A stretch of 64,000 nucleotides of DNA from Candidatus Beckwithbacteria bacterium GW2011_GWC1_49_16 (GCA_001029675.1 CP011210.1:192193-256192), one strand, 5' to 3'; counted from the stretch's first letter, positions 17,289 through 43,287 are shown. Numbers and translations: made by a program. The notes: generated from the letters alone by a model not told the origin.

Positions 17289-17293
17289 TGCCC

Positions 17294-18736: not shown

Positions 18737-18760
18737 AAACCTCTATTATACTATAGGGCT

Positions 18761-20113: not shown

Positions 20114-20153
20114 TAAAAATTACTATAGCATAATCTGTGTTATACTCGAGCTT

Positions 20154-22279: not shown

Positions 22280-22296
22280 TGGTGTATATTTAATCT

Positions 22297-22767
22297 ATGG
22301 CCAAAGAGCAGTCGGTAGTTTTAGTTAAACCGGACGGGTTACAGCGGGGGTTGTTGGGCGAGATGGTCAGCCGGTTTGAGAGGAAGGGGTTGAAGTTGGT
22401 GGCAGTCAAGATGATGAGACTAACGGATGAGATTTTGGATCATTGGTACGAGCATCACAAGGACAAGGATTTTTTTGACGAGCTTAAATCTTTCATGAAG
22501 TCGGCGCCGATTGTGGCCATGCTGTGGCAGGGGGTGGAGGCGGTGGCGGTGGTGAGAAAGCTTTGCGGCACTACTTCGGGCCGTGAGGCCGAGGCCGGTT
22601 CGATCAGAGGCGATTTTTCCATCAGCCAACAATTGAATCTGATCCACGCGTCAGACAGCGTCGATAATGCCGACAGGGAAAGAAAACTTATTTTCAAAGA
22701 CGGCGAGATAATCGATTGGGAAAGCGCGGCCGAGGCTTTGGTTTATTCGGCGGCAGAGAGAAGTTAA
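22297..22767 (+). CDS. ndk: nucleoside diphosphate kinase
   Basis: SVVLVKPDG...RGDFSIS...NLIHASD matches the NDK catalytic His motif. Confidence 0.95.
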   Translation: MAKEQSVVLVKPDGLQRGLLGEMVSRFERKGLKLVAVKMMRLTDEILDHWYEHHKDKDFFDELKSFMKSAPIVAMLWQGVEAVAVVRKLCGTTSGREAEAGSIRGDFSISQQLNLIHASDSVDNADRERKLIFKDGEIIDWESAAEALVYSAAERS

Positions 22768-23138
22768 AGGTTTTTAAGAAAGTTTTTGATTCTGTTTCTG
22801 TCTTCGTTTGGTTTGTTCCCTTTATAGTATATCTCAATAAAAATAATCTTAGAGTTTGATTTGAGAAAGGCGTAGATGACTCTTAGTCCACTTCTTGAGC
22901 CTTTACCAAAGAGGGATTTACAGGCAAATTTCTTGATTTTACAGATATCAACTTTCTGGCTACAAAGTTCTGGAATTGGGAAAATGCTGCGGTTATCTGT
23001 GTTTTGAAGGTAAAGAAGTTCTATCGTGGTCTTTTTGACAAGGTTAAAGTCTTCGTGAAGGGTTCTTAAGCGTTTCTTTAGCTTCTTAAAATCCTTTTTA
23101 AATTCTGGAGTCTGTTCATAGATTAGATTTATCGTCAT
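22764..23138 (-). CDS. putative toxin (RelE/ParE-like fold) partnered with the Panacea-domain antitoxin
   Basis: 124 aa overlapping the upstream HTH-DUF4065 gene by ~23 nt. Pattern GKGSRSGLRVIYAF...IIFIEIYYKGNK resembles RelE/ParE toxins. Confidence 0.45.
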   Translation of the reverse strand: MTINLIYEQTPEFKKDFKKLKKRLRTLHEDFNLVKKTTIELLYLQNTDNRSIFPIPELCSQKVDICKIKKFACKSLFGKGSRSGLRVIYAFLKSNSKIIFIEIYYKGNKPNEDRNRIKNFLKNL

Positions 23139-23874
23139 AGCTTCTTACAGACGTTTCATCGGTGCGATAAAAGACTGCTTCGTATTCTATTTGTTGGCCT
23201 TGTTTGGCGGTAATAAAGGGAACATCTTTATGAGAGTAGACGCTTAAGTCGTTGGCGTTTTTATCCGAGAGCCTATTTAAGACTTCGTCGATGTGTTTGA
23301 TTTCTCTGGCAGTGAGTAAGTTGATATTTGGGGAACGATTAGGCAGATACTTCTTTTGATCGTACTGGAAGTATTTGCTTTTAACTTGGACGATTTCTTT
23401 TTTCTTTTCCATGTCCTGAATAACTTGGTCGAACATTGCCGGGGTGGGACCATGGTGGTTTTTAACATAAGCTGCCCCTATCAATTGCTCTTCAAATTTT
23501 TCGTAAAAGTCAAAGTCGATAAAGTAGAGTAGCTTGTAGATAACGGTTTTACCTACGTTACGCTTGGCGCCGACTTTTTCCAGGACGTAAAGCAAAACCT
23601 CTTTGAACTTGTCCACTTTTTCTTGAGGAATACTGATGCGGATGGTGTCATTTTTAATGAGAGGTTTTTTAGCTTTGGTGATCATAACTGTGATTTTAGG
23701 AAGATTAAGTATTGACTCAAGTCTTTTTAACTCTTTCAGGGTGAGTTCCCGAGAACCCTTTTCTACTAATATGTATGTCGGGCGAGAGATACCTAGTTTT
23801 TTAGCCAGGTAGGCTTGAGATAAACCTAGTTCTGTCCGTTTCTTTCTGATGATGCTTTCAAGAGATTGAACCAT
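23116..23874 (-). CDS. HTH_XRE plus Panacea (DUF4065) domain antitoxin-like protein
   Basis: N-terminus LGLSQAYLAKKLGISRPTYILVEKG is an XRE HTH. C-terminus KTVIYKLLYFIDFDFYEKFEEQLIGAAYVKNHHGPTPAMF matches the DUF4065/Panacea signature (KLxKLLY...W.HGPV). Confidence 0.6.
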   Translation of the reverse strand: MVQSLESIIRKKRTELGLSQAYLAKKLGISRPTYILVEKGSRELTLKELKRLESILNLPKITVMITKAKKPLIKNDTIRISIPQEKVDKFKEVLLYVLEKVGAKRNVGKTVIYKLLYFIDFDFYEKFEEQLIGAAYVKNHHGPTPAMFDQVIQDMEKKKEIVQVKSKYFQYDQKKYLPNRSPNINLLTAREIKHIDEVLNRLSDKNANDLSVYSHKDVPFITAKQGQQIEYEAVFYRTDETSVRSYDDKSNL

Positions 23875-23945
23875 AAACCGCTACCAGTTTAGCAGGTGTA
23901 AAGAATTTTTGTCAAGTCTTAGAGTAAGAAATGTTGACACAGAAC

Positions 23946-24080
23946 TTACTTTTTATTGACGTATTTCCACAGGGTCATGATGGCCAGAACCAAAAGGATT
24001 AGGACTAGGATGTAGATGAGCCAGCCGAAAAACATGACAGAGCCGCCTCCCCAACCGTTCATCATTTGATATCCCCACAT
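23946..24080 (-). CDS. small hydrophobic peptide (44 aa) with strong SD
   Basis: GGAGGTGA lies 7 nt upstream of the ATG. Product is MWGYQMMNGWGGGSVMFFGWLIYILVLILLVLAIMTLWKYVNKK. Confidence 0.3.
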   Translation of the reverse strand: MWGYQMMNGWGGGSVMFFGWLIYILVLILLVLAIMTLWKYVNKK

Positions 24081-24539
24081 TTTGCCTCACCTCCTTTAAC
24101 AAGAGAGTTTTTAACTTGAAGCGTGATCTTTAAGTTTTTTTCGTAAAGTCTTTATCTCGTTGATAATCTCATCCCTGATTTCATAGAGTTCATCCTGGAA
24201 AGATTTAGAGTTTTCATTTAAGCCTTGATTCGTGACTAACTTGTCTGATTTGATCATTACGTTATTATTGTTGGTGATTGACGAGTGGTTGTTAATTGGT
24301 CGGGGTGGCCCGCCTAAGGCGGGCGGCCTGTCGCCTAAGGCGACCGCTCTGCCAACTGATAATTTTTGCTTTAACCATTTTCTTCCTTGCCCAGACTTAA
24401 GTTGTCTTTCTCTTTTCTTAGTTTTGTATATTTAGATTGACCGGAATTATGTTCATGAATCCGCCTTTTAAGATTATTAGTATGTCCAATGTAATGTCTT
24501 TCATTTTTATAACTTTTAATGACGTAGACGTAATACATG

Positions 24540-24612
24540 TCGGAGAGCCGGGATTCGAACCCGGGACCTCGTCGTCCCGAACGACGCGCGCTACCAACTG
24601 CGCTACTCTCCG
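24540..24612 (-). tRNA. tRNA-Pro (anticodon CGG)
   Basis: Hand-folded cloverleaf: acceptor CGGAGAG/CTCTCCG, D-arm GCGCAGTTGGTAGCGC, anticodon loop TTCGGGA, T-arm CCGGG-TTCGAAT-CCCGG. No encoded CCA. Confidence 0.85.
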
Positions 24613-24680
24613 TAACCGGCGATTCGTCTAAGGCGGGCGACCGCGCTACTCCGCCTCAGGCGGACGCTACACCCCGTGGG

Positions 24681-24752
24681 TGCCCCCACCAGGAGTCGAA
24701 CCTGGATTAGAGGTTTAGGAAACCTCTGTTCTATCCATTAAACTATGGGAGC
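24681..24752 (-). tRNA. tRNA-Arg (anticodon CCU)
   Basis: Acceptor GCTCCCA/TGGGGGC, anticodon stem GAGGT/ACCTC with loop TTCCTAA, T-arm CCAGG-TTCGACT-CCTGG. Confidence 0.85.
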
Positions 24753-24808
24753 TAGTGAACCTGAAAGGATTATAGCAAATTTATATTTGGTATAATCATT
24801 CTGTTTTT

Positions 24809-26371
24809 ATGATGGCAGAACGAGAAAAAAAACAGCAGCTTCATCCCGGTATGGTAATACATGCGGAAAAGTTGCTTGATGAAGCTGGAGCAAGAAATAA
24901 GAATTATAATGAATTACTGAATCAGGGACGAAGGCAAAAGATAGTTGAGTTTCTTGGAGAAGGAACTGTTTTTAACAACTACACTCAAGCATACATGGAG
25001 GCTTTTGTGGCAGCAGACGAAGTGTTAACCCTCGATCATGGTTTAGAGGGTTTAAAAGTGCTTCCGTCCTTGAAACGGGTAGCGTTGGTTTTTGGAGAAG
25101 ACTTGCCTCCACAGGAAGGAATTTTTAGGCGCCTAGAGGACATTATGTTTGACACTCAATTTTTTGCAGATAGGCATTATGATAAGAGAGAAATTGGGCA
25201 GGGTTTGAGCGGTTTACAGAAAATGATTGCCTTTTACTATAACGCCACGGAGGTAAAGTTGAGATTTATACCTATGGAAGAAAAACTGTATGATGATGCT
25301 TGGTTCACATATTTGGGTCAGATGTTAATAGAGCGAAGAATTTGGAATAACCTAGACAGTTTTAGGGGGGAAGACAGTTTTGAAACAATGGTTAACTTTC
25401 ATAAATACTACAAAGTTAACGCCTCTCATGTTTTTGCACACATTAGAAGAATTCCTAGTGGTAGATACTTAGAATTAAGCGCTAGAGATACGTCTGAACC
25501 AAGAGAGAGGGTGTTGTCTTTTCAAAGAGATGTGATTGATATCGAAGATTTACTAGAGGGAGAAGAAAATTTTTCTTTAGTCGATCTAGAAACGCTCGCG
25601 GAAAGATTATCGAAAAAGCATCAAACTATAATGGGGCAGCTTTTAGCTGGTCAAAGTCAAAAGATGCTTATAGAAGGTGGTTTTAAAAGAAGAGAAATTC
25701 AGTTAGCGACGTTTGAATTTGGCAAAGTGCTGGCAGAATTAGACGAGAAGTATAAAGGCTTGATAGTTGCTGAAAAGCAAAAACAAGCGAACATGAAAGA
25801 ATTATGGGAGAATTTGCATATGGCGACGAGATATCTAACCCTCAGAGAGTTTTTTAATCATGTTTCAAGGTTGGGTCAAAGAGAAAGGTTTGCAATGCTG
25901 AAAATGACTGGTTACTCCGACCCGGGAAAATCTCTAAAGGAATCGGCGCAGGCCCATGGATTTTCAGGAGAGTTAATTATAATGAGGGATTTTAGCAGCG
26001 CCGTAAAATCATTAACCGAATCAGTTTCTAAATATAAACTTATTGACGAAAATAGTTCTCTAAAGATCAATCCTAAAAAATTAGTAAGGGAATCAGAAAA
26101 TGTTAGATCTTTTAGGGTTGAAAAGGAGAGAGCTTTGAGGCCTGATGGACGGGGTAAAATAGTTGATAATATGATGTTATCCAGCGACGGCGAATTTATG
26201 AATTTATTGCCGTCTCATTTGCGCCGAACTTTTCTTTTGTTAATCGAACTAAACGATGATGGAGAATCATTGAAGCACAGTCGACAATCATTAATCAATA
26301 AATATGGATTGGGTTCAGGCAGATTGGATCGTCATATTGCTTCGATTAAAAGGGTGATTGAAGATTATTAA
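24809..26371 (+). CDS. hypothetical protein (520 aa, no recognisable domain)
   Basis: Long ORF adjacent to the tRNA pair. No signal peptide or TM. Confidence 0.45.
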   Translation: MMAEREKKQQLHPGMVIHAEKLLDEAGARNKNYNELLNQGRRQKIVEFLGEGTVFNNYTQAYMEAFVAADEVLTLDHGLEGLKVLPSLKRVALVFGEDLPPQEGIFRRLEDIMFDTQFFADRHYDKREIGQGLSGLQKMIAFYYNATEVKLRFIPMEEKLYDDAWFTYLGQMLIERRIWNNLDSFRGEDSFETMVNFHKYYKVNASHVFAHIRRIPSGRYLELSARDTSEPRERVLSFQRDVIDIEDLLEGEENFSLVDLETLAERLSKKHQTIMGQLLAGQSQKMLIEGGFKRREIQLATFEFGKVLAELDEKYKGLIVAEKQKQANMKELWENLHMATRYLTLREFFNHVSRLGQRERFAMLKMTGYSDPGKSLKESAQAHGFSGELIIMRDFSSAVKSLTESVSKYKLIDENSSLKINPKKLVRESENVRSFRVEKERALRPDGRGKIVDNMMLSSDGEFMNLLPSHLRRTFLLLIELNDDGESLKHSRQSLINKYGLGSGRLDRHIASIKRVIEDY

Positions 26372-26379
26372 GATTTTTC

Positions 26380-27525
26380 TTAATACTTGAAATTTAAGCT
26401 CGGTTGGCGGTCGAGCTTTTTAGGGTTTTTGACAAAGTCTTTTTTGAGGAATTTGAAGTAAGCAGCTACGGCGATCATGGCGGCGTTGTCGGTGAAGAGT
26501 TTTTTGGAAAAAGGCAGGTAGACGGGTAGGTTATGGCCGCGGGCGACGCGGCGCAGCTGGCGGCGGATGTAGAGATTAGAAATAACGCCGCCGCCCAAAA
26601 GGATGCCTTTAGGCTGGGTTTTTTTAATGGCAAGCTCGAGCTTGCCGGTCAAACTGTCGGCGACGGCTTTTTGGAAAGAGGCGGCCAGGTTGTGGGTGAA
26701 ATTTAAGCTAAGGGTCTGACCTTTTTTATTTTGGATGATATACAGAGCAGCGGTTTTAAGGCCGGAGAAAGAAAAGTTTAAGTCTTTGGAGTGCTGCATG
26801 GGTACGGGCAGGGGGATTTTGGCTATAGCCAGCGGCGAAGCTTTACGGGCCAGTTCCTCAATGATCGGGCCGCCGGGGTAGCCCAATTTAAGCATTTTGG
26901 CCAGTTTATCCAAGGCCTCGCCGGCAGCGTCGTCCAGAGTTTCGCCCAAAAGTTGATAACGGCCGATGGCGTGGACAAGAACAAGTTGGGTGTGGCCGCC
27001 GGAAACGAGGAGAGCTAGCAAGGGGAATTTGATAGACACACCCGGTGTGGGGGATTTCTTCACACCGGGTGTGTTGGGTAAGGCCAGGGGTGAAAGCAGA
27101 TGTCCTTCCATGTGGTTGACGGCGATTAGAGGCAGATGGAGGTAGGCGGCGAGCTTGCGGGCAGTAGCGATGCCGACTTCCAGGGCCGGGGCCAGGCCTG
27201 GGCCAACGGTGACGGCGATGGCGTCGAGAGAATCCGTCAAGGTCGGACCTTTCGCCTGCCGGCGAGCCCTGCTTGGCTGGCTGCCAGGCATTCCTTTTAA
27301 GGTCCGACCTTGCCTGCGCGCTCGCATCAGCGCCTCCCGCACCACATAGTCGATTTTTTCTTGGTGGGCGCGCTTGGCCAGATGGGGGACGACCCCGCCG
27401 TACTTTTTGTGGATGTTAATTTGGGAGGCGATGACGTTGGAGAGGATTTTGCGGCCGCGGCTGACGGCGGCGGCGGTTTCGTCGCAGGAAGTGTCGATGG
27501 CTAGAATTAAAGGCTGTTTCATCAA
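26380..27525 (-). CDS. tsaD: tRNA N6-adenosine threonylcarbamoyltransferase TsaD (Kae1/YgjD family)
   Basis: LILAIDTSCDETAAAV...GGVVPHLAKRAH N-terminal signature and GGGVISN C-terminal motif. Carries in-frame palindromic insert TPGVKKSPTPGV. Confidence 0.9.
   Translation of the reverse strand: MMKQPLILAIDTSCDETAAAVSRGRKILSNVIASQINIHKKYGGVVPHLAKRAHQEKIDYVVREALMRARRQGRTLKGMPGSQPSRARRQAKGPTLTDSLDAIAVTVGPGLAPALEVGIATARKLAAYLHLPLIAVNHMEGHLLSPLALPNTPGVKKSPTPGVSIKFPLLALLVSGGHTQLVLVHAIGRYQLLGETLDDAAGEALDKLAKMLKLGYPGGPIIEELARKASPLAIAKIPLPVPMQHSKDLNFSFSGLKTAALYIIQNKKGQTLSLNFTHNLAASFQKAVADSLTGKLELAIKKTQPKGILLGGGVISNLYIRRQLRRVARGHNLPVYLPFSKKLFTDNAAMIAVAAYFKFLKKDFVKNPKKLDRQPSLNFKY
27037..27073. repeat. 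palindromic element variant CACACCCGGTGTG-ggggatttctt-CACACCGGGTGTG, in-frame in tsaD
   Basis: Exact inverted 13-mers. Minus-strand reading gives TPGVKKSPTPGV. Confidence 0.9.
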
Positions 27526-27885
27526 AGCATTTTACCACTTTTTCACACTGGTAAAAACAGGTAAATAGACGGCGGAAGGGTGACGACTTCTATATAATTA
27601 TAGGTTCTATGGGCTTCGGTAATTATTTTGTTAGTGGCCGAGTTTGACTCGGTTCTTTGGGTGGTAAAACGTCAAATTCCGTGAAAACTAAGAAAAAAGC
27701 TGACTCAAGATTTAAAAACGAGCAGCAAACGTGTTCAATTATTGATTTAAGATCAGTTTTATTTGGTGAATGTTGGGTTAAAAAAACTTTTTCAACCTGG
27801 AATCAGTCATTTGGCGATAAATTAATATAGGCTTTTAAAAAATTGGAAACAAGACAAGAAGAAGATTTTAAGCTATGATAGCAGT

Positions 27886-28242
27886 ATGCCGGAAGTGTTA
27901 ATGGCGGTTTTGCCAATGATTTTATGGTTTGTCGAGCGCTTATTGCCTTTTCCGGCAGTAGTGGAAGAGGTGGCCAAGGCTTTGGTGGTGGTTAGGGCTG
28001 ATGGGCGGCGCCAAGCTTTCTTCTTGGGTTTGATTTTCGGCTTGTCCGAGGCTTTTTTGTTTTTAGTCAACGCCAACCTGCTGGCGGACTTGACCGGCTT
28101 TTGGCGGCGGCTACTTTTTACCGTGCCGATGCACGGCGTCACCGCCGGGCTGATTATGTTGTGGGGAAAACGCTACTGGTGGTTGGGTTTGCCTCTGGCG
28201 ATGCTGGCACACGCTTGGTTCAATCTAAGAATTGCGAGCTGA
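27886..28242 (+). CDS. small membrane protein with PrsW/CPBP-like motifs
   Basis: EEVAK (EExxK), MHGV (xxxH) and HAWFN (HxxxN) spaced as in CPBP/PrsW intramembrane proteases. Only 118 aa. Confidence 0.35.
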   Translation: MPEVLMAVLPMILWFVERLLPFPAVVEEVAKALVVVRADGRRQAFFLGLIFGLSEAFLFLVNANLLADLTGFWRRLLFTVPMHGVTAGLIMLWGKRYWWLGLPLAMLAHAWFNLRIAS

Positions 28243-30538
28243 CCCACCAGGATTGACCGGAGTCTTGCCGGCTAAAGTCGATACGGGACCAATCATCACT
28301 GGTTTCAAAGACATAAACATCCAGGCTGGTTTTGACGGCCATGACTACGGCCGCGGCCGGGTCGGGTTTGAAGCGTACGTTGACGCTTGAGCCTTCAGGC
28401 ACGGTCAGGCGTTTGGGAGTGGCCTCTCCCAGCACCTGTTTTTCCTGTTTGACGTTGACTTCTTGAGGCAGGGGTGAAGGTGAGGCCGAGGGTGAAGGTG
28501 AGGCCGGGGCGACTTCTAGGATTGTCGGTTCGGGTGCGCTTTTGGGCCGGAGTAAGGCCTGGGTGATGATGACGGTGACGATGGTGGTTGCCAGGATCAC
28601 CAGCGGGATCAGGGCAGGGTTAGATATAAGCCGCCGCCAATCACCCGGCGTTGCCGCTGCGGTCAACGATTTTGGTTTGGTTGCCTTGGTGGATTTAAAC
28701 CTGATCTGACGCATATAAATGGTCAGGAAGACAAAACCGGCAATGACAATGATGATGATTCCCCAGACGGCGACGGCCTGAACGCCGCCGATAAAGCCGA
28801 AGATCGAGCCGGTGCCCGAGGCTTGGGCTACCAGGTCTTGAAGACGGGCCATGTTGGTATTGACGCCATTAAGCTCGAGCTGGGCTTCGCGGTAGGTGCG
28901 GATGCGGTTTTCCGGGGCGATGGCTTTGCTTTGGGCTAAAAGAATTTTATTGACGGTGACGTCGATTTCCGACTTTAACACCGTGCCTTGGGCAAAGTAA
29001 CTGGTTTTTTCCAGCGGCCTTAAGAGTTCGGCTGCCTGGTTTTTGAGCGCATCCAGCTCGGAGGCCGTCAGCTGCCAAATGTCTTCAACCTCGACGGCCA
29101 CCAGCTTGGTTTCTTGGGGTTTTAAAGTGTAGGAGCCGGAGACAAACAACGCCTCTTCGGTGGTGTCGTAATGGGTTTCCAGGGACGGGTCGAGGCCGAT
29201 GATGTTTTCGGTTTTTAACTCCCGGGGCAGGAAAAACTTTAAGGGGACGGTTTGGCTGATGACGCTTGATGGGTTGGTGATGACCGCCCTAAAGATGATG
29301 CTGCCTTCTTCAAGCCATAGAGAGCGGATCGGGTCGCCCGGCCTGACGGCCAGAAGCTGGCGGTTTAAGCCAAGTAAGGCTTTGAGATTAAAAAGCAGAT
29401 TTTTTAAGTTGAGTTTTTTATCTTTGTTTGTCTTGGTGGGTTGAATCAAGCTGCCTCCGCCGGGATACTGGTTTAAGGCGAGAACCTGTTTTTCCATGGC
29501 GGTGACACTGGTGGTTAAAAGTGTTTCTCCCTGCCCTTGCCAGTTTTCCAGAAGCAGGGCCAGTTTTTGGTTTTGGTTTTCCAGAGCGGCGTCGCGGGCG
29601 GCGACATATGCCAGGAAACCAAAAAGCGTTGCTTGGGCGCTGGTATCGCCTGGGTGGCCAACAAAACTTTTCAACTGGTCTAGGTTTTGGTTCTGGACGG
29701 CTAGGTTAATGGCTTTGATTACCGGCGCATCCCAGTCATTAACTAGCGCGGTCAGAGCCGAAGGGTTAGTAAACAAAATGGCGCTGCCTGACTGGACCCA
29801 ATCATAAAGGGCTTGGGCGTGTTTCCGGCTTTGCTCGAGTTTGACGTTCAGGTCGGGAATGGTCTGGCCCTCCTCCAAAGACAAAGACACCACCGGGGCG
29901 TTGACCAGTTTTTCCAGAAGCACCCGCTGTTGCTGTTGTTCTTGGGTAATGGCGGTAATTTGCTGGGCCGGGCCGGAGGTGGAAGTGGTGACGGCCGAAG
30001 TCCAGATGTTGGCGATAAGATCGCCAAAGGTAGTCAAGGAGCGGGTGGAGTGATCCCAAATGTCGGCAATCAAATCGCCGAAGTCAGTTAAAGAGCGAGA
30101 AGAGTAGGACCAGACCTCGGCAGCGGTTAGTCCGGGAGAAGGCGAGGCGGCCGAGGCCGTCACCTCAAAGGTTTTGTCGATACATAAATAGTCGGCGCCC
30201 GAGCTGCAGCACAGAGTAGTCGGGTAAAGCCCCTCGGTCGTATCAATAGTCGCGTCGTAATGATACCAGGCGTCAATCGGGGCAGTGATGCCGTCAATGT
30301 CTAAAAAACTGCTGCCGTTAGGGTATGAGGCGGTCAAATCACAACTGGCGTCGGTATCCAAGGCGTACTCATCGTCATACAAAAACTCGCCGATGGTGCA
30401 GGTAGCGGAAGTGGGGCACTGTTGATAGGTGGCGGCTAGTGCCGGTCGGGCCGGGAGCAAAAAAGCCAGGGCAAGCAGGTAGAACATGCCATCAGCTTTT
30501 ATTTTTCTTGCTTTTGGTTGGGGGGCTGTCGTTTTCAT
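28220..30538 (-). CDS. large membrane-anchored surface protein with C-terminal SH3b-like domain
   Basis: Signal peptide likely from the internal Met (MFYLLALAFLLPARPALA). Internal TM helices, a tandem ~19-aa repeat (SRSLTDFGDLIADIW / TRSLTTFGDLIANIW) and an SH3-like C-terminus. Confidence 0.5.
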   Translation of the reverse strand: MKTTAPQPKARKIKADGMFYLLALAFLLPARPALAATYQQCPTSATCTIGEFLYDDEYALDTDASCDLTASYPNGSSFLDIDGITAPIDAWYHYDATIDTTEGLYPTTLCCSSGADYLCIDKTFEVTASAASPSPGLTAAEVWSYSSRSLTDFGDLIADIWDHSTRSLTTFGDLIANIWTSAVTTSTSGPAQQITAITQEQQQQRVLLEKLVNAPVVSLSLEEGQTIPDLNVKLEQSRKHAQALYDWVQSGSAILFTNPSALTALVNDWDAPVIKAINLAVQNQNLDQLKSFVGHPGDTSAQATLFGFLAYVAARDAALENQNQKLALLLENWQGQGETLLTTSVTAMEKQVLALNQYPGGGSLIQPTKTNKDKKLNLKNLLFNLKALLGLNRQLLAVRPGDPIRSLWLEEGSIIFRAVITNPSSVISQTVPLKFFLPRELKTENIIGLDPSLETHYDTTEEALFVSGSYTLKPQETKLVAVEVEDIWQLTASELDALKNQAAELLRPLEKTSYFAQGTVLKSEIDVTVNKILLAQSKAIAPENRIRTYREAQLELNGVNTNMARLQDLVAQASGTGSIFGFIGGVQAVAVWGIIIIVIAGFVFLTIYMRQIRFKSTKATKPKSLTAAATPGDWRRLISNPALIPLVILATTIVTVIITQALLRPKSAPEPTILEVAPASPSPSASPSPLPQEVNVKQEKQVLGEATPKRLTVPEGSSVNVRFKPDPAAAVVMAVKTSLDVYVFETSDDWSRIDFSRQDSGQSWWVSSQFLD

Positions 30539-30671
30539 TTAAAGCCCGCCTGAATTCGTTGGTGGCCCGGCGGATGCCTCGGGCCAGTTCCGGCAGTTTA
30601 TCGCCGCCGAAAAACAGCATCAAGACCAGGGCTATGACGATAATCTCGCCCAGACCAATATTGGCAAACAT
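30492..30671 (-). CDS. tatA: twin-arginine translocase TatA/E family protein, copy 1 (59 aa)
   Basis: MFANIGLGEIIVIALVLMLFFGGDKLPELARGIRRATNEFRRA. Too short for the ORF track. Confidence 0.8.
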   Translation of the reverse strand: MFANIGLGEIIVIALVLMLFFGGDKLPELARGIRRATNEFRRALNENDSPPTKSKKNKS

Positions 30672-30674
30672 TGA

Positions 30675-30842
30675 TTATTCTTTTTCTTTGATGGCCTCTT
30701 TGAGGTCTTTGGAGGCTTTTTTAATCTCCACCTTAGACTGGCCCAAATTTTTACCCATCTTAGGCAAAAATTTGGCGCCAAAGAGCACCAACAAAACGAC
30801 CGCTATGATGATAATCTCGGTCGTTCCCAGGTTAGCAAACAT
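30675..30842 (-). CDS. tatA: TatA/E family protein, copy 2 (55 aa)
   Basis: MFANLGTTEIIIIAVVLLVLFGAKFLPKMGKNLGQSKVEIKKA. Confidence 0.8.
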   Translation of the reverse strand: MFANLGTTEIIIIAVVLLVLFGAKFLPKMGKNLGQSKVEIKKASKDLKEAIKEKE

Positions 30843-30869
30843 GGTTTCTCCTTTCTTGTTGGGGTAATT

Positions 30870-31013
30870 TTATTTTTCTTTGCTGGCCCGCCTAAATTCT
30901 TTAATAGCTTGGCCAATACCCCGCATCAATTCGGGGATTTTTTTGCCGCCGAATAAAAGGATGATGATGACGGCGATGACGATGATTTCGGTGCTGCCGA
31001 TGTTACGAAACAT
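30870..31013 (-). CDS. tatA: TatA/E family protein, copy 3 (47 aa)
   Basis: MFRNIGSTEIIVIAVIIILLFGGKKIPELMRGIGQAIKEFRRASKEK. Confidence 0.8.
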   Translation of the reverse strand: MFRNIGSTEIIVIAVIIILLFGGKKIPELMRGIGQAIKEFRRASKEK

Positions 31014-31016
31014 TAA

Positions 31017-31196
31017 TTATTCACCCCCTTCATCTTCCTCTTTAAAGGCTTTTTGGATGTCTTTTTTGGCGCCTTTTAACTCCCGGCCGGCCTGGCCCAA
31101 GCCCCGGGCCAGTTCCGGTAGTTTTTTACCGCCAAACAGCACCAGTAAAACGACAAGAATGACGATAATTTCGACAGCGCCTAAGTTTTTAAACAT
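31017..31196 (-). CDS. tatA: TatA/E family protein, copy 4 (59 aa)
   Basis: MFKNLGAVEIIVILVVLLVLFGGKKLPELARGLGQAGRELKGAKKD. Confidence 0.8.
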   Translation of the reverse strand: MFKNLGAVEIIVILVVLLVLFGGKKLPELARGLGQAGRELKGAKKDIQKAFKEEDEGGE

Positions 31197-31911
31197 AACT
31201 TCTATTAAATATTAGCGTCAGTTCAAAAAGAAGTAAAGGGGGAATTGTCAGAATAGTTAAAGAGACGATGTCGTTGGGGGGGAGTAAGGCTACCAGGATC
31301 AAGATGGCGGTGTAAATATAGCGGCGGGAGCGTTTGAGGGACAAGGGCGACAGGACGTGAAGCTGGATCAGCCCGGAAAGGACGATCGGCAGTTGGAACA
31401 CTAGAGCCATGAGGATGCCGGTAGAGATGATTTGCCTTAAAAACCCGCTTAGATCCCAGAGGTTTTCGACGGCGAAGTCGGCCGAGACTTGGGTATAAAG
31501 GCTAATTATAAACTGGATGATCCAGGCGCCGAAGGCAAAGCCGACGACAAATAAAATCAGGCTGACGGGGTAGAGGCGTACCAGCAAGCGGTATTCTTTA
31601 GCCCTTAAAGCCGGGCTGATAAAGCGGATCAGATAAAAACCCAAAAGCGGCAGGGACACGCTCAAGCCGGTCAAGACACCGGAACTGACGGCCAGGTCAA
31701 TAAACTGGTAAGGGGAGGTCAAAACCAGGTTGATACCTTCGAGATTAAATAGGTGCATGATGGTTTTAATGATCGGTTGGTAATAAATAAAGCCCAGGGC
31801 ACCGCCGCCGATAAAGACGGCGATGACATGGAATAAGCGCTTTTGGGCTTCCTTTAAGTAGGGCAGGTATTTGGCAATGGCTTGGTCCCGGTAGTCTAAT
31901 TTAGGGCTCAT
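31189..31911 (-). CDS. tatC: twin-arginine translocase subunit TatC
   Basis: 6-TM protein with the TatC N-terminus (YLPYLKEAQKRLFHVIAVFIGGGALGF). Directly upstream of the tatA array on the same strand. Confidence 0.85.
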   Translation of the reverse strand: MSPKLDYRDQAIAKYLPYLKEAQKRLFHVIAVFIGGGALGFIYYQPIIKTIMHLFNLEGINLVLTSPYQFIDLAVSSGVLTGLSVSLPLLGFYLIRFISPALRAKEYRLLVRLYPVSLILFVVGFAFGAWIIQFIISLYTQVSADFAVENLWDLSGFLRQIISTGILMALVFQLPIVLSGLIQLHVLSPLSLKRSRRYIYTAILILVALLPPNDIVSLTILTIPPLLLFELTLIFNRSYV

Positions 31912-33245
31912 TTAAGTGAAGCTAGAGTGGCTTTGGTTTTGGCGTCTTTAAGGGTTTTGGCAGCTGAACCGGTGACGGTGTGGCCGCTGGTAATTACTTC
32001 ATCCCAAACACCATTGACGATATTAGTGATGTCGTCTCCGGTGACCGCGCCGCCGGTGTCAATGAATGTTCCAACACTGCCCACGCTTTGAGTCGAACCG
32101 GCAGTATTCCCCGAGAAAGTATTATGGAGGCGGATGCCGGTCCGGACTACCCCGTTACCGACATTGATGCCGTAGCTGGTATTGTTGTAGATGATATTAT
32201 TTTCAAAGATATTGTCGGTTGAGTTGCTGCCGGTGATGACCACTCCGTCGGCGGGCGTGGGGACTGTGCCGCTGCCGGTGACAATACATTTTCTTACCGT
32301 CGACAGGGTAGTGTAGTCACCCATATTGATTCCGTTACCCTTGCAGTTTTCCACCACACAGGTTTCTACGATTGTTCTGGCGCTTGAGCTGATATCGATG
32401 CCGCTGCCGGTCGCGCCATATACCCAGCAGTCTTCGATTTGTGCCCGGTCACCGGTAACGGTGATGCCGTTGTCAGTGCCGCCGGCGGCAGTTGTAATGT
32501 AAAAGCCGGATACCTCCACATTGTCTGCCTGAATATTGATCGTTGGGGAACCCTCGGTACCTGTTAGTTTGAATGGGTATCCTGGGCCTCTTAGTTTTAA
32601 GTTGTCAATGGTGATATCTAAGGTTTCGGTAGTGGTCACGCCGCCGCTGGTGGTTGATAAAGCAAAAATGATGTCGCCCGCGCCGGCGCCGGGGGTGGCT
32701 AGCTGTTGGGCCCGATCAAAAGTCAAGACCGCATTAGCTGGAGTGGTACCATCGTTTCCGTCATTGCCTTTGGTCGGATCAGGGTTCCAGTACCAAATAC
32801 TACCAATGGATTTATTTTTTCCCCGCAAAGATTCCAAAAGGTATAAAGTGGCGTAGTCGGCGTCGGCCTGGATGATCGTCGGCGAGGACGACTGGGCAAT
32901 CACCACTTGGGTAAAGGCAGTCGGGTAGATGGGATTGTTGGCATAGTCATTGATGGCCACCAAATTGCCGCCGGAAACAGTACAAAGGATTGTGCCGGAT
33001 AGGCCGTCTCTGGCCTCAAACGACAACCGCCAGTTATTGATCAGCTCCAAAGTAATGCCGATGTAAGAGCCGCCGCCCAGGGGTTGTTTACCGTAGGCAT
33101 TAGCAATCGTGCCGTAATCTAAGTTAATTAACTGTTCCTCATAAAGCCGGATTTGGTCGTGAAGATCCTGAATTTCTACCGAGGTCTGGGGGGCGTCCAC
33201 TTGGATAATTCTTTCGTATTTAAAAAAAGTTAATGCGGCAGGCAT
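31908..33245 (-). CDS. right-handed parallel beta-helix repeat protein (pectate-lyase/tailspike-like), no signal peptide
   Basis: Repeated GxxG/NxxI rungs: GITVTGDRAQIEDCWVYGATGSGIDISS...CKGNGINMGD...NNIIYNNTSYGINVGNG. Confidence 0.55.
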   Translation of the reverse strand: MPAALTFFKYERIIQVDAPQTSVEIQDLHDQIRLYEEQLINLDYGTIANAYGKQPLGGGSYIGITLELINNWRLSFEARDGLSGTILCTVSGGNLVAINDYANNPIYPTAFTQVVIAQSSSPTIIQADADYATLYLLESLRGKNKSIGSIWYWNPDPTKGNDGNDGTTPANAVLTFDRAQQLATPGAGAGDIIFALSTTSGGVTTTETLDITIDNLKLRGPGYPFKLTGTEGSPTINIQADNVEVSGFYITTAAGGTDNGITVTGDRAQIEDCWVYGATGSGIDISSSARTIVETCVVENCKGNGINMGDYTTLSTVRKCIVTGSGTVPTPADGVVITGSNSTDNIFENNIIYNNTSYGINVGNGVVRTGIRLHNTFSGNTAGSTQSVGSVGTFIDTGGAVTGDDITNIVNGVWDEVITSGHTVTGSAAKTLKDAKTKATLASLK

Positions 33246-33246
33246 G

Positions 33247-34092
33247 TTAAGAATCTAAATAAACTGAAATTTTTAATTCTGGGATCAAACGTTTATTTCT
33301 GTAAATATAATTTACATCAGGATTGATCTTAATCGCCAGATAATTTTTGGGAATCTTCGATAATTCTTGCCCGGTTTGATTAAAGCTTTGATTAGTCTCA
33401 TCAAGCTGAAAACAAATCAGCCGCATGGCTGATTTGGGTGAAAAGGGTAAGCCTGATTGGTTAATCACCAGTTTTTTTTGCCCTGCCGGTTGGTAAAAGT
33501 TGATCGGAATTAGCCCCCGGTCCATCAAGGCCACAAACCGGCCGATATTTTCGGCCACTACCCGGCTAAACTCTGTTTTTTTGGCTTTTTGACCGGGGTG
33601 ATCTCTAAGATGCTCTAAAAGGTGGCGGTTAACCAAGTGGATTTGTCCTCGTTTGTCTTGAGCAAAAAACACTAATGAATTGTTGTATTGAAACAGGGGA
33701 GTCAATCGGTATTGTTTAAAAATTGGTACAATTTTCTCATCAATTCTGGCCGCAGTTAGATCAAGTAAATTCGGATCATTGACCAAAAAGGCCCTAGTTT
33801 TGGTGTTATAAATTCTTAATCTCAAGTTTTTGACGGCAATTTTTACTAGATTTACCGTCAAATTATCGTTGGCAGCACAAGTCAAAACAATTTGTTTTGT
33901 CCGGGTGTTTATTTTCATTGCCGCCATCATTTTTGTCTCTGGGTAAGATATCAGCAAGGTTTGATTTTTACCCTTTTTTACCTCAACTTCTCCGGTAAAG
34001 GTTAAAAGATAGTCGTTGATTTTTTGTAAGCACTTTTGTAAGTTGACAGAAGAGTTGGTGCTTATCAGCCTATAGGTTACAAGCTTTGCCAT
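33247..34092 (-). CDS. hypothetical protein
   Basis: 281-aa ORF. No recognisable domain. Confidence 0.4.
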   Translation of the reverse strand: MAKLVTYRLISTNSSVNLQKCLQKINDYLLTFTGEVEVKKGKNQTLLISYPETKMMAAMKINTRTKQIVLTCAANDNLTVNLVKIAVKNLRLRIYNTKTRAFLVNDPNLLDLTAARIDEKIVPIFKQYRLTPLFQYNNSLVFFAQDKRGQIHLVNRHLLEHLRDHPGQKAKKTEFSRVVAENIGRFVALMDRGLIPINFYQPAGQKKLVINQSGLPFSPKSAMRLICFQLDETNQSFNQTGQELSKIPKNYLAIKINPDVNYIYRNKRLIPELKISVYLDS

Positions 34093-34099
34093 TTAATGG

Positions 34100-34429
34100 T
34101 TACTTAACCAATTTTTTGAGCTTTTCGGCTTGGACAATGTCGTTTTTTAAAACTTTAATCATGCCGTCAATCCGCTTGAGTTCGTTTCTTTCTTTTTTGA
34201 TCGCTTCCTCAAATACTTTGATGTTCTGCTTGATTTTATTCTGGTATCTTTTTAAATCATTAACACCATAGCCGCGGATAATTTTGATTTTTTCCAGCTC
34301 TGCCTTTGACGGAATCGAGCTAACGATTGGCGTCGATGATGGCAATGATTTGGAAGAGCCTTTGGATCTCTTTTTCTTCGGCATCGATTTGATCCTGAAA
34401 TAATTTAATATTGCGGCGGCGGCGGGCAA
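34100..34429 (-). CDS. coiled-coil protein (possibly frameshift-linked to 34320..34502)
   Basis: Lys/Glu-rich heptad pattern. Overlaps a 60-aa ORF that carries a similar motif (NIKLFQDQIDAEEKEIQRL vs NIKVFEEAIKKERNELKRI). Confidence 0.3.
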   Translation of the reverse strand: MPAAAAILNYFRIKSMPKKKRSKGSSKSLPSSTPIVSSIPSKAELEKIKIIRGYGVNDLKRYQNKIKQNIKVFEEAIKKERNELKRIDGMIKVLKNDIVQAEKLKKLVK

Positions 34430-34506
34430 TTTCGTCCTCCAGGGCAGGCTTACTGTAGCGCAAGGCTTCCTCTTTGGTGACCGGAAGGGTCGGGTCGGTC
34501 ATCTGG

Positions 34507-34779
34507 TTATCCCCAAAAACGTTTTTTCCGGGCAGGTTTATTAGTTTTACCCTTGGCGATTTTGCTTGGTTTTTTGGCAGTTTTTTTACTGGCTAATTTG
34601 GCTGCTTTTTTTTGGGCTTTCTTTTTGGCGGCCAAAAGGCGGTCGATAGCCCGGGTCAGTTTTTCTTGAGAAGGTTCCCGGAAACGGACTACTCCTGACG
34701 CGTCCCGGGCGATGTGAAGGATTTTCGCACCACCATCATATGAGGAAACCGAGAGTTGATAGCCTTTATGGTATTTCAT
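34507..34779 (-). CDS. small protein with Lys-rich histone-H1-like tail
   Basis: C-terminus KKKAQKKAAKLASKKTAKKPSKIAKGKTNKPARKK. Confidence 0.4.
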   Translation of the reverse strand: MKYHKGYQLSVSSYDGGAKILHIARDASGVVRFREPSQEKLTRAIDRLLAAKKKAQKKAAKLASKKTAKKPSKIAKGKTNKPARKKRFWG

Positions 34780-34785
34780 AAGTTA

Positions 34786-37338
34786 TTAACTAAAGATCGT
34801 ATCGGTGCTTCTAATCACAGACACGGTCATGCCGTTACTGGTAATTGTTGAGTCCTGTTCAAAGGGGATCATTCTCGGGGCAGCAGTAGAGTGCCGGGCG
34901 CGGACCCGGGTGAAAACAGTGGTGTCATAAACAACTTGGACTGTTTCCGAGTCTTCCGATCCGATCGAGCCGGTAGTTTCGTGAACATCGATAAATGGCA
35001 CATAAAGCGTGTCATTGGTGGCTTCCGGGGCAATCGGCAGGGTGTTAATTTCATAGCCGTCAGTGTTGGTAAAGCCGGTTACGGTGGTCATGTTAACGTT
35101 GTCATCGTCAACTACTTCGGTGATATAACCGACTGCGCCGTTGGCAGTGCGCCGGATTAAGTCACCCACTTTAGCGGTGGCAAAAGCACCGGTATCTTGG
35201 ATATGGGTGGTGGTATTGCCGGTGGCGTCTGATGTCAAACCGGTGGTTGAGTCTAAAGTGAAAACACTGCCGCTCCAGGAGGCAAAGCGGATTCGGTATT
35301 CGGTATTGGCACTATCATCCACAATTCTCAATACTCCGCCGACGGTTTTGCCTGGTTCGTCAATCCTGATTGTTTGGTTGACAGTTAAACTGGTGCCGCC
35401 GGCAGCCTCGCCGCCGACACAGGTGTAGTAGTTTTTTTCAATATCACCGCCAGAGCCGGTCAATCTAAAGACGGCGATTCTGTCGCCTTCAATCGTTTTA
35501 TTAACAGTAACGTTTACCTTAATTGGGGCCAGTCTCACTGTACCGCCGTCATCAACCAGCTGAAAATTATTTAAGTCAGAATCCAGACGATCGTTAAGGT
35601 AAACTCCTGGGGCACAGAAGAACTTGCCGCCGGCGAAGGTGCCGAAAGGAGCGGCGCTGATTGGGGTAATGGTAGCGATTGTTGCCCCGGTTGGGTTTAT
35701 AGTTACACCGCCGCCGGTAATGCTACCGCCGCCGGCAGTAAAAGTTCCCCGGGAATCTCTTAAAATCAGGATATCATCTGTAGAGTTATGGTTAGTACAG
35801 GTGCCAGTTGCGCCGGTGCCGGCTTGGGTGACTACTGTTCCGGTAGTGATAGTGCCGTCGTCGCTGGTATAGCCGGAGATTTTGTAATCAGAGCCGATAT
35901 AAGATTCGCCGATAACCGTGGCTGCACCCGGGTCAATGTCGTCGGCATTTAGGTTGCGCCTGGTAATGTATTTTGTCCACTGGTAGACTTTGCCGACTGA
36001 ATTTTGATTACAGTCAATGACGATCGAGTAGTTTTCATTTGTCCCGTTTTCGTCAACGTCAAAACTGCCTCCGTCGGCCATTCCGCCGAAAGCAAGCGTT
36101 GCGGGAGTGCCGCTTTCCCAAAATGTCGTCCCTGAAGTTGTTGCCGGTCCGGCAACAACCGGAGCCGAAGCGGTGATCGTGCCGCTGCCGTCGCCATCTG
36201 ATTGAGTCGAGAAAACATATTCTTGAATGACGGTATCGCTAGCAGAAAAATCAGTGATCGGTTCACCGAGTAGGTAATAGTAAATATAGTTGTTGTCGGT
36301 ATCAATGGCGGTAATCACTCCGCGCTTGGTAGTTGTAGCCCAAGTATTGGCGCCGGAGTTGGTCCAATATATATAGTTACCAACATCAAAGTTTGCCACA
36401 GAGGCAGTCATTGTCATTCGGCTGTAGCCGGTTGGATTGTCCAGGTCAGTACCGGTTTGAAGCGGGATAGGGTTACGACCCACCACCCCGGCAGTAGTGA
36501 TCAAGTCCACAGTATAGTAGGAATAGGTTTTGGAGTATTGCCGGGCATAGACTTTGATCCAGCCTTCGTCGGTTTCCGCACCCAACTCCTGGACGTTGAT
36601 CAAAATGTCGATATGGTCGGTGGACAAACCTGTAGTTTTGTCGCTCCACCAGTCGCTTTGGGTGTCTTTGTAGGCGGTTAAATAGGCACCGTCTTGATAG
36701 ACGTAAATATGAGTGTAGTTTTCAATCGCACCGATGGAATAGATATTGGCCCAGAGCGATTCGCCGGCGGAAACGGCCGCGGCCGATTGGGTAGCGGTGT
36801 GGGTGTTACAGGTAATACCGCCTGAGGTTGAGTTCCAGTCGTTAGCGAGAGCATTGTTAGCTGGCCTGATCCACAAGGTGCTGCCGGCGCCGGTGCCTTT
36901 TACATCCAAGAGCGTCCCGGAGTCGAGGTCGGTGTCGTGGCTGATGGTCTCACCGATGTCGCCAGCAACGATATTGGTATTGTTGCAGGTGACTTTGACG
37001 ATACCGACATTGCCGGTGCCGTCACCCGGCAGGTCTCTTTGCCATTCAGCCGTTTTTAAAGCACCGCCATAGAGGTGTTCGACCGTGGTTCGGTCAATAA
37101 ACCAGGGGTCTTTATCGCCTGTGTCAATAATGCCGATGGTGTACTCGGTCGGGGTCTGGGCGGACATGGGCACGCCGTCGTCCATCTGGGTGAGTTCGTC
37201 AAAGAGGTCCTGGAGAGCCGAGTAGAGTTCATTGATCGTTCTGGTGCCGGTGTCCGATCCGGTCCAAACAATCCGCTTCTGCCGATTTTCGGCGCCGTAG
37301 TAAACTGTGAAGTCACCGCTTAAAATAGTGTCTGACAT
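34786..37338 (-). CDS. giant fibre/tail-fibre-like protein (850 aa, Thr/Gly-rich beta-rich, no signal peptide)
   Basis: N-terminal module ...TINELYSALQDLFDELTQMDDGVPMSAQTP... is shared with the 82-aa ORF at 38548..38796. Long low-complexity T/G/S/N-rich body. Confidence 0.5.
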   Translation of the reverse strand: MSDTILSGDFTVYYGAENRQKRIVWTGSDTGTRTINELYSALQDLFDELTQMDDGVPMSAQTPTEYTIGIIDTGDKDPWFIDRTTVEHLYGGALKTAEWQRDLPGDGTGNVGIVKVTCNNTNIVAGDIGETISHDTDLDSGTLLDVKGTGAGSTLWIRPANNALANDWNSTSGGITCNTHTATQSAAAVSAGESLWANIYSIGAIENYTHIYVYQDGAYLTAYKDTQSDWWSDKTTGLSTDHIDILINVQELGAETDEGWIKVYARQYSKTYSYYTVDLITTAGVVGRNPIPLQTGTDLDNPTGYSRMTMTASVANFDVGNYIYWTNSGANTWATTTKRGVITAIDTDNNYIYYYLLGEPITDFSASDTVIQEYVFSTQSDGDGSGTITASAPVVAGPATTSGTTFWESGTPATLAFGGMADGGSFDVDENGTNENYSIVIDCNQNSVGKVYQWTKYITRRNLNADDIDPGAATVIGESYIGSDYKISGYTSDDGTITTGTVVTQAGTGATGTCTNHNSTDDILILRDSRGTFTAGGGSITGGGVTINPTGATIATITPISAAPFGTFAGGKFFCAPGVYLNDRLDSDLNNFQLVDDGGTVRLAPIKVNVTVNKTIEGDRIAVFRLTGSGGDIEKNYYTCVGGEAAGGTSLTVNQTIRIDEPGKTVGGVLRIVDDSANTEYRIRFASWSGSVFTLDSTTGLTSDATGNTTTHIQDTGAFATAKVGDLIRRTANGAVGYITEVVDDDNVNMTTVTGFTNTDGYEINTLPIAPEATNDTLYVPFIDVHETTGSIGSEDSETVQVVYDTTVFTRVRARHSTAAPRMIPFEQDSTITSNGMTVSVIRSTDTIFS

Positions 37339-37432
37339 AGCAGGCTATAAAGTTCAGTATGGGTGGTTTTTCAAACCCTGTCAAGTAGGAGTCCTTGACA
37401 TAGACTTTAATAAAAGTTAGACTTTCGTTAAA

Positions 37433-38566: not shown

Positions 38567-38796
38567 CCCTTTAAAAATTTTCGGCTGGCTTTATCAATAG
38601 TCCAGCCATTGATCAGTTTAAACTCGTCCTTGGCTTGGGCCTTTATCGGAATGTCGTAGCGCATGTTTTCCGGCTCGTCAAACAGATCCATGAGAAATGA
38701 GTATAGTTGTTTGGCGTTGTAACTTTTACCGCTGCCTTTTTCCTGGCAGCTGATGGTCTTGGTTTTAAAGTCGACTTGAAAAACTGTTGGCGTCAT
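38548..38796 (-). CDS. small protein sharing the N-terminal module of the 850-aa fibre protein
   Basis: NAKQLYSFLMDLFDEPENMRYDIPIKAQAKDEFKLINGWTI parallels TINELYSALQDLFDELTQMDDGVPMSAQTPTEYTIGII. Confidence 0.35.
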   Translation of the reverse strand: MTPTVFQVDFKTKTISCQEKGSGKSYNAKQLYSFLMDLFDEPENMRYDIPIKAQAKDEFKLINGWTIDKASRKFLKGHISQG

Positions 38797-38797
38797 A

Positions 38798-40735: not shown

Positions 40736-40792
40736 ATTTCTACTTTACGACAAAATGTAACTTAGCAAAAGGGGGTAGGTGATGTGTTATGG

Positions 40793-41275: not shown

Positions 41276-41281
41276 TTTAGC

Positions 41282-43070: not shown

Positions 43071-43287
43071 TCGGCGTACTTTTGAACAAAGAGGCGGTTT
43101 TTGGCGGTTTGCCTGAACGCGGCTGCCAGAAAATAAGCCACCAGCGGCAGTAAAAAGATCAAGGTTACCCCCCGGCTGGCGGCGGCAATCAGCAGACAGA
43201 TGAGGCTGCCGTAGTAGAGTCGGTAGGCGCGCCAGCGCTTGCGCCGCAGTTTAGTTAGGATTAACAGTCGGTTGGCTTCGGCTTGGT

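Follow-up and report, generated by a model that had tools for sequence, protein, structure and literature searches.

In the 64,000-nucleotide stretch of Candidatus Beckwithbacteria bacterium GW2011_GWC1_49_16 that was analysed here (GCA_001029675.1 CP011210.1:192193-256192; henceforth the window), the listing of open reading frames (ORFs) places a gene for TatC, of the pathway for twin-arginine translocation (Tat), ahead of four short genes for TatA-family proteins. These follow tatC head-to-tail, all on the minus strand, and are termed A1 to A4 below, or d1 to d4 where the types that they represent across genomes are meant (Table 1). The core of the original prediction for this DNA, four short TatA-family genes in tandem that share the strand of tatC and lie downstream of it, was recovered exactly in its coordinates and gene sizes. 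The tatC gene overlaps that for A1 by 8 nt, and the successive tatA genes are separated by spacers of 3 nt (A1-A2), 27 nt (A2-A3) and 3 nt (A3-A4), the longest of which holds an AGGAG Shine-Dalgarno sequence that is A3's own ribosome-binding site. On one side, a gene coding for a 755-aa protein begins 4 nt past A4; on the other, the tatC start and the stop of the gene upstream, which codes for a beta-helix protein, overlap as ATGA. Scans for promoters and terminators across the operon found neither to be enriched over shuffled sequence (14 versus 10.0 +/- 2.7 and 20 versus 15.2 +/- 3.7), and upstream of the gene for an 850-aa protein the promoter scan gave a match to -35/-10 that is good. Given the 8-nt overlap, the 3/27/3-nt spacers and a terminator signal not above chance, tatC and the four tatA genes look like a single, translationally coupled operon. 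No further TatA-family ORF is present in the 64-kb window.

All four short proteins match the Pfam profile TatA_B_E (PF02416) far beyond chance, at E=4e-12 to 1e-15 and with 45.6-57.2 bits where the cut-off is 21; each match starts at profile position 1 and ends between positions 42 and 51 of the 53. They are also named 'TatA/TatE family subunit' by NCBI (AKM79004-AKM79007; the locus proteins together are AKM79004-AKM79008). Each displays a short N-terminal transmembrane (TM) helix, an F-G hinge and a basic amphipathic helix, with a hydrophobic stretch of 13 residues between E9 and F21; in the alignment of the four copies M1, F2, N4, G6, E9, I10, I11, F21, G22 and P27 are invariant. The FGG/FGA hinge that had been noted from the start is indeed found in all four, whereas the K(K)LPEL motif attributed to every copy along with it holds for A1 (GGKKLPEL), A2 (GGKKIPEL) and A4 (GGDKLPEL) but not for A3, which has FGAKFLPKM. 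Protein identity of the other paralogs with A1 is 52-57%, and DNA identity is 57-66%; d2 is the minimal form, its protein stopping directly after the amphipathic helix, and d3 is the most divergent type of the four.

We also compared the copies with curated models that distinguish the subfamilies, namely the NCBIfam models tatAE (TIGR01411; cut-off 53.9 bits) and tatB (TIGR01410; cut-off 56.5 bits). The tatAE/tatB scores are 52.9/39.9 for A1, 65.2/32.7 for A2, 44.9/32.4 for A3 and 44.8/31.1 for A4, such that only A2 exceeds the tatAE cut-off, with A1 just under it and A3 and A4 at about 45 bits; by the tatB model all four fall between 31.1 and 39.9 bits, well short of 56.5, and each scores lower than it does by tatAE. 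Length points in the same direction, the copies being 47-59 aa as against about 170 aa for the E. coli TatB and 190 and 193 aa for the TatB chains in the PDB. The best PDB relative of d1 and d3 is the B. subtilis TatAd (2L16), and that of d2 and d4 is the TatA chain 9e07_F (E=1.3e-10 for d2); d3 shows the weakest similarity to TatB in this search (17.4 bits), while for d4 the bit scores are nearly equal for TatA and TatB chains (35.2 versus 32.5 and 32.1). Glu9 of each copy aligns with position 8 of the E. coli TatA and of the TatB chains and, being common to all four, does not discriminate a TatB among them; TatA proteins from N. salsuginis and from haloarchaea also carry a glutamate at this TM position. 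TatE-type paralogs have a lysine at position 8, often within an E3xxxxK8 motif (PMC5777986), and this signature is absent in all four copies, where the equivalent position is Glu. On the question of whether one of the four is TatB-like, neither the NCBIfam models nor the PDB chains nor length singled out any copy as a TatB. A TatB-like orthogroup in relatives was considered as well and rejected, as representatives of all the types, including the divergent 'u2' type, do not score better as TatB. As neither the locus nor the 64-kb window holds a gene that is TatB-like, the set is of the TatAC type (TatB-less), with four TatA-type subunits.

That the array might be an artefact, be it an assembly duplication, a set of chance ORFs or decaying pseudogenes, is a negligible prospect in light of the above Pfam E-values and the following observations. 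Six contigs from independent assemblies carry the 810-bp array in 100% identical form, which excludes assembly duplication, and the paralogs themselves are diverged in DNA; the exact TatC is indexed in 75 blocks of the collection, a 1.05-Mb contig among them. As for pseudogenes, the other way in which the original prediction was considered liable to fail, they are ruled out by strong purifying selection. The ratio of nonsynonymous to synonymous divergence (dN/dS) relative to the nearest relative (L009) is 0.12 for d1, 0.08 for d2 and 0.04 for d3, all well below 1, and d4, for which synonymous sites are saturated in this comparison, has a proportion of nonsynonymous differences (pN) of 0.14. 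Synonymous sites are saturated in the other comparisons too, with pN only 0.07-0.30, and dS exceeds 1 for the paralog pairs within the genome. Taken with tatC, all five genes are intact members of their families and evolve under purifying selection. Two apparent variants of the array were discarded: the loss of copy 3 in L006, seemingly with three copies, stems from a run of Ns at a scaffold gap, and a truncated array (L007) reflects a contig end rather than strain variation.

A TatC-profile scan of metagenome contigs recovered 38 related loci, in which a hidden Markov model of the four paralogs was then used to identify TatA genes. TatA genes adjoin tatC in nearly all 38 loci, and the tatA-tatC linkage is kept in more than 25. 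Where TatC identity is 60-68% (L009, L010, L012, L016; also L048) the same tatC-d1-d2-d3-d4 order and size pattern recurs; at 49-55% we observed d1-d2-d3, sometimes with a fourth copy, Candidatus Collierbacteria (L013/L046) having four; and at 38-45% tatC has two copies upstream of it and one downstream, at times with a further copy at a distance of a few kb. When loci not cut by contig ends are counted, about 12 have four copies, nine have three, three have two and two have one. Conservation in related genomes, which had been raised as a check, is thus seen in the form of the same ordered array in related Microgenomates, the group of Patescibacteria to which Candidatus Beckwithbacteria belongs, with Collierbacteria among those relatives. 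The claim that four copies are unusual stands in comparison with most bacterial classes, which average about 1.1-2.7 genes of the TatA family for each species surveyed (Simone et al. 2013, Table 1, where the Deinococci row looks anomalous), but it does not apply within this Microgenomates clade, where three to four copies are the norm.

In a neighbour-joining tree the TatA proteins group by position and not by genome. The d1 orthogroup extends across 18 loci, d3 falls together with a type termed 'u2' that more distant relatives have, and the d4 orthogroup is found in closer relatives. Each has its own consensus: FGGKKLPELARGLGeSGkELKKAkk followed by an acidic tail often ending in GGE for d1; FGgKKiPEL.RGia.aIKEFr.AsKe followed by the stop codon for d2; FGakfLPK.GKnlGESgkElKkAaKeLK for d3; and FGG.KlPELarGia.a.kEFR.al for d4. 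We compared a 40-residue core across 13 loci with TatCs averaging 62% identity: between species, the same-position identity is 67-78% for d1-d3 (highest for d1, at 78%) and 59% for d4, as against only 36-57% between positions within one genome. In the same 13 loci the mirror-tree correlation with TatC divergence is r=0.84 for d1, 0.61 for d3 and 0.43 for d2. As each position has its own orthogroup with its own signature across lineages, the alignments indicate that the tatA duplications are ancient and that the copies are non-redundant and non-interchangeable in evolution. We also observed that G-G-E(-P) frequently occurs at or near the C-terminus of the d1-type TatA (the window, L009, L013-L015, L018-L020, L025 and L026), the acidic tails of this type being otherwise variable, from about 10 to about 40 residues.

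These data bear directly on a simpler account, namely that the tandem copies are interchangeable and merely raise the output of TatA, which is needed in excess over TatC. The complete TatA architecture of all four copies, their best classification as TatA/E and their presence in one operon would fit such a dosage effect, as would TatA:TatC ratios of about 20-50:1 in Tat systems, reported in a preprint (bioRxiv 10.1101/2025.09.29.679310). Nevertheless, interchangeable copies would be expected to homogenise, vanish or drift without position-specific conservation, whereas these copies have diverged to 52-57% protein identity with near-saturated synonymous sites and have kept their position signatures across lineages with TatCs that are about 50-68% identical. 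Moreover, that three superfluous genes would persist over more than 20 sampled lineages is improbable with a genome of about 1 Mb. We therefore regard an explanation by dosage or redundancy as rather unlikely.

The TatC of the locus matches PF00902 over profile positions 2-208 of 208 (E=2.1e-36) and aligns with the E. coli TatC chains 9dzz/9r91 (E about 6e-15). However, its scores of 106-112 bits by the NCBIfam tatC models lie under the equivalog cut-offs of 132.7 and 192.6, which points to a divergent TatC lineage. The residues that bind the twin-arginine (RR) motif are kept, F97 being equivalent to E. coli F94 and E106 to E103, and both are invariant in 35 TatCs of the clade; in the FEA variant of the E. 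coli TatC, a double alanine replacement of F94 and E103, substrate binding is blocked (PMC5201420). In contrast, the polar cluster is replaced, with P211 in place of E. coli T208 and L218 in place of Q215 in 35/35 clade TatCs; in E. coli, T208 and Q215 hydrogen-bond the polar residue of TatA/TatB (PMC5201420). Near the replaced cluster the only conserved polar positions are N213 (N/T/S) and S217. The partner glutamate is retained by every TatA paralog despite P211/L218, and N213 and S217 are candidate contacts for Glu9.

We propose that the locus of this groundwater bacterium encodes one functional translocase of the TatAC (TatB-less) type, with a single TatC and four co-transcribed, anciently diverged and non-redundant TatA subunits, which would be a form unusually rich in subunits of the machine by which folded proteins are exported, and we assign this reading a probability of roughly 0.55. 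In such a machine TatC would bind RR signal peptides, the Glu-bearing TM helices of the paralogs would compete for the TM-helix sites between TatC protomers, and their distinct amphipathic helices and tails would divide among them the jobs of a TatB clamp, of TatA membrane thinning and of a TatE-like modulator. TatB acts as the signal-peptide clamp and is a resident of the core complex. In E. coli the TM helices of TatA and TatB share the TatC site via a polar residue at position 8, the core complex has the composition TatA1B2C3, and further TatA, the bulk pool, is drawn in for membrane thinning (PMC13323110, PMC5201420); TatE and TatAc provide the precedent for diverse function among TatA paralogs (PMC5777986). 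On account of its translational coupling to tatC, its highest conservation and its best tracking of TatC divergence, d1 might, speculatively, be the resident core partner of TatC. In the same tentative vein, d2, with its minimal 47-aa form and TatA-like KEF motif, might be the bulk membrane-thinning subunit, and d3 and d4 might be accessory or modulatory.

Several considerations weigh against this proposal. The assignment of roles to individual paralogs is speculative, drawing as it does on weak correlates, namely gene order, conservation and a mirror-tree r from 13 loci and 40 residues, and the neighbour-joining tree was built on 47 columns without support values. According to Alcock et al., TatB and TatA are not cleanly separable by any sequence motif (PMC5201420); sequence alone thus cannot settle the roles of the paralogs, and by the same token a TatB-like role could fall to one of them. 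Such a role would be convergent, as no copy is TatB-like by curated models or length. With Pro and Leu in place of T208 and Q215, the docking geometry may differ from that of the E. coli TatC. Finally, the census of tatC and tatA genes is that of the 64-kb window, and more copies could lie elsewhere in the 1.05-Mb genome.

Table 1. The tat genes, their neighbours and candidate Tat cargo (positions in the window, except where a related locus is named)
Feature	Position	Strand	Remarks
tatC, 240 aa	31189..31911	-	PF00902 E=2.1e-36; signal-peptide receptor subunit
tatA paralog 1 (A1/d1), 59 aa	31017..31196	-	PF02416 54.3 bits; signature FGGKKLPELARGLGQAGRELKGAKK, acidic tail, GGE end
tatA paralog 2 (A2/d2), 47 aa	30870..31013	-	PF02416 57.2 bits; signature FGGKKIPELMRGIGQAIKEFRRASKEK
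tatA paralog 3 (A3/d3), 55 aa	30675..30842	-	PF02416 50.1 bits; FGAKFLPKMGKNLGQSKVEIKK replaces LPEL..RG / EF motif
tatA paralog 4 (A4/d4), 59 aa	30492..30671	-	PF02416 45.6 bits; signature FGGDKLPELARGIRRATNEFRRAL, basic/polar tail
Membrane/surface protein, 755 aa	28220..30487	-	Sec-type signal, C-terminal TM region, weak SH3_3 match
Beta-helix protein, 445 aa	31908..33245	-	PF13229 E=3e-12; without signal peptide; directly upstream of tatC
281-aa protein	33247..34092	-	without signal peptide
850-aa protein	34786..37338	-	without signal peptide
Candidate Tat cargo, 480 aa	17294..18736	-	N-terminal signal MPAAEQLSRRNFLKVATIFAAGAAVES, C-terminal TM anchor
Candidate Tat-dependent membrane/secreted protein, 226 aa	42240..42920	-	internal DRDRRLFLKLIGS Tat motif, DRRLFLK
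CHASE-domain (extracellular sensor) protein	41282..42265	-	PF03924 E=1.6e-29; directly downstream of, and overlapping, the 226-aa gene
RR-signal candidate	L018 2808..3371	+	MSRRRFLTLSLAGVGALTG, about 630 bp upstream of tatC
RR-signal candidate	L042 1117..1590	+	ERRKFFKYLF near tat genes, then F-G-S

To identify candidate cargo, we scanned the six frames of the window, with 127 ORFs that reach 80 aa or more, for RRxF[LIVM][KRQ], which returned two matches, each followed by a hydrophobic stretch. These correspond to the two proteins with RR signals that had been named at the outset; both motifs are real, but only the first is N-terminal, the second being internal, behind two TM helices. The first protein, of 480 aa, bears a textbook N-terminal signal, MPAAEQLSRRNFLKVATIFAAGAAV, with the motif SRRNFLK, and a weak match to PF10518 (TAT_signal); it is an orphan, with no homologue but itself among 5.8 billion proteins. 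The second, of 226 aa, comprises in order two N-terminal TM helices, a basic linker, the internal Tat motif, a weakly hydrophobic helix, AQA and a domain with FFGSMPGPGT. It belongs to a family with at least 269 homologues in the candidate phyla radiation (CPR), whose members share the two N-terminal TM helices and the basic linker and then have the motif D-x-[DNE]-[RK]-R-x-F-L-K-L-I-G-S, followed by a weakly hydrophobic helix with a Lys after it, A-x-A, and lastly a domain that is conserved over about 100 aa and has no Pfam match; FFGS(M/V)PGPGT is invariant in the family. In an alignment of 20 sequences R100, F102, L103 and K104 are invariant, and the first arginine is R in 17 and K in 3. 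The AlphaFold2 model of the 226-aa protein, with a mean predicted local distance difference test score (pLDDT) of 64 and a predicted TM-score (pTM) of 0.31, supports TM1 and TM2, with pLDDT values of 85-91, and a helix that spans residues 96-119, but is otherwise weak. The layout of the family is that described for joint insertion by Sec and Tat (PMC3471235, PMC5449189). It recalls the actinobacterial Rieske type, and this dual Sec/Tat class is unreported for CPR in the literature found. The family-wide conservation of the internal Tat motif speaks for use of the Tat pathway; the conserved array shows Tat to be an actively maintained export route in CPR bacteria, and the motif points the same way. 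Around the tat clusters of the related loci no conserved RR cargo was detected, only scattered candidates (L018, L042); the L042 protein with ERRKFFKYLF loosely recalls the 226-aa internal-RR family by its N-terminal motif.

The cargo also has a bearing on whether the paralogs form alternative translocases with TatC for different substrates or substrate sizes, as happens in B. subtilis, where TatAdCd exports PhoD and TatAyCy exports EfeB, QcrA and YkuE (PMC3827258). In accord with this idea, the two cargo types in the window differ, one being a 480-aa tail-anchored protein and the other, of 226 aa, polytopic and with its signal inside the chain, and the C-terminal tails differ among the paralogs. 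However, each specialised TatA of B. subtilis has its own TatC and separate regulation, whereas here one tatC is seen, and tatA genes coupled in a single operon could not be used under different conditions. Furthermore, signal recognition resides in TatC, and with only two RR candidates in 64 kb, nothing in this stretch hints at a Tat secretome of great size or diversity. Because of the single visible TatC and the one tight operon, we favour a division of labour among the four TatA subunits within one translocase, and consider cargo specialisation, the interpretation offered with the original prediction, unlikely.

The tat genes lie within a conserved block on the minus strand (28220..37338), which comprises the genes for the 850-aa protein, three small ORFs, the 281-aa protein, the beta-helix protein, tatC, the four tatA copies and the 755-aa protein, and which recurs at TatC identities as low as 41-45% (L027, L035, L048). 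The beta-helix gene also adjoins tatC in L008, L009, L012, L016, L027, L035 and L048, and in L010, L011 and L024 its product keeps an N-terminal region of about 125 aa, the remainder being replaced. The 755-aa gene is also called in L002-L006, and homologues of it adjoin tat clusters in L009-L012, L016, L027, L029, L035, L039, L042 and L048. The 850-aa, 281-aa and beta-helix proteins yielded no informative Pfam match beyond Beta_helix and no PHROG match; a prophage origin of the block was rejected, the neighbouring genes being without PHROG matches. Across the whole window (1..64000) the GC skew, (G-C)/(G+C), is strongly positive on the plus strand, at 0.06-0.33 per 2-kb bin, independently of the strand that carries the genes.

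A conceivable link to the neighbourhood would be that at least one copy has left the Tat pathway, to act as a holin-like or membrane-stress protein serving the neighbouring large signal-less proteins. The tat genes do lie inside a conserved block coding for such proteins (the 850-aa protein and the beta-helix protein with its swapping C-terminal domain), and a TatA-like protein of a far clade matches a phage holin at 19.6 bits, albeit below the threshold of 34.75. Yet, all four copies keep every hallmark of TatA, including the TatC-docking Glu and the hinge, the neighbours match no phage family and the holin score is far under its cut-off. We accordingly hold a departure from the Tat pathway to be very improbable.

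The individual proteins described here are already known as ordinary, annotated TatA-family members; what appears to be undescribed is the architecture with multiple orthogroups and the altered polar cluster of TatC, and the literature found by full-text search makes no mention of conserved arrays or orthogroups of three to four paralogs. The division of labour among TatA paralogs, as receptor, in membrane thinning and in modulation, is still being worked out, and the first structures of the Tat core complex date to 2025-26. In this context the clade offers a natural experiment, with paralogs of 47-59 aa in four orthogroups and one TatC in a streamlined genome of about 1 Mb, where retained genes are presumably needed. 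Should each copy have a role of its own, the set would define which minimal sequence determinants every such role needs and would imply that TatB-like function can arise more than once; if they are redundant, the finding would be a curiosity of gene dosage only. That Tat is maintained in CPR bacteria is also of relevance to how these episymbiont-like cells build their surface. A further and more tentative possibility is that the Microgenomates independently evolved a multi-subunit Tat system from a TatB-less ancestor, with three to four TatA lineages in fixed, non-interchangeable places (a TatB-like core resident, a bulk thinner and modulators) and with a TatC that, lacking the equivalents of T208 and Q215, contacts the Glu differently. 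Such a machine might, in addition, serve only the large surface proteins that the conserved flanking genes encode.

Both E. coli and B. subtilis have three TatA-family genes. The B. subtilis system (TatAd-TatCd, TatAy-TatCy and the orphan TatAc) resembles the one described here in being a TatB-less TatAC type with several short TatA paralogs, but its three TatA and two TatC proteins are encoded in separate, differently regulated loci, as against four TatA and one visible TatC in one operon. Its TatA paralogs, which have an FGP hinge and no known TM Glu, also differ from the present ones with their FGG/FGA hinge and invariant Glu9. There is evidence that the third TatA of B. subtilis (TatAc) works together with another TatA instead of duplicating it (PMC5777986). 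In the E. coli TatABC(E) system, likewise, TatA-family members share the TatC docking site (through E8 of TatB and Q8 of TatA) and divide the roles; it differs in having three paralogs, including TatB and TatE, whereas here there are four, none of them TatB or TatE and all beside tatC, and while the RR-binding residues of the two TatCs are alike, they differ at T208/Q215. Within the CPR/Patescibacteria, TatA and TatC have been reported from Microgenomatia, Paceibacteria and Saccharimonadia (PMC9166423), in the one paper found that speaks of Tat in this group; these are the same two families as at this locus, recorded there by presence only and not as paralog arrays. The haloarchaeal Tat systems are similar in being TatB-less and in having a Glu at the polar position of the TatA TM helix, but are opposite in what was expanded: there it is TatC that has been multiplied, to 2-4 homologues, alongside only 1-2 TatA proteins of 75-145 aa, whereas in this clade one TatC stands beside three to four very short TatA proteins.

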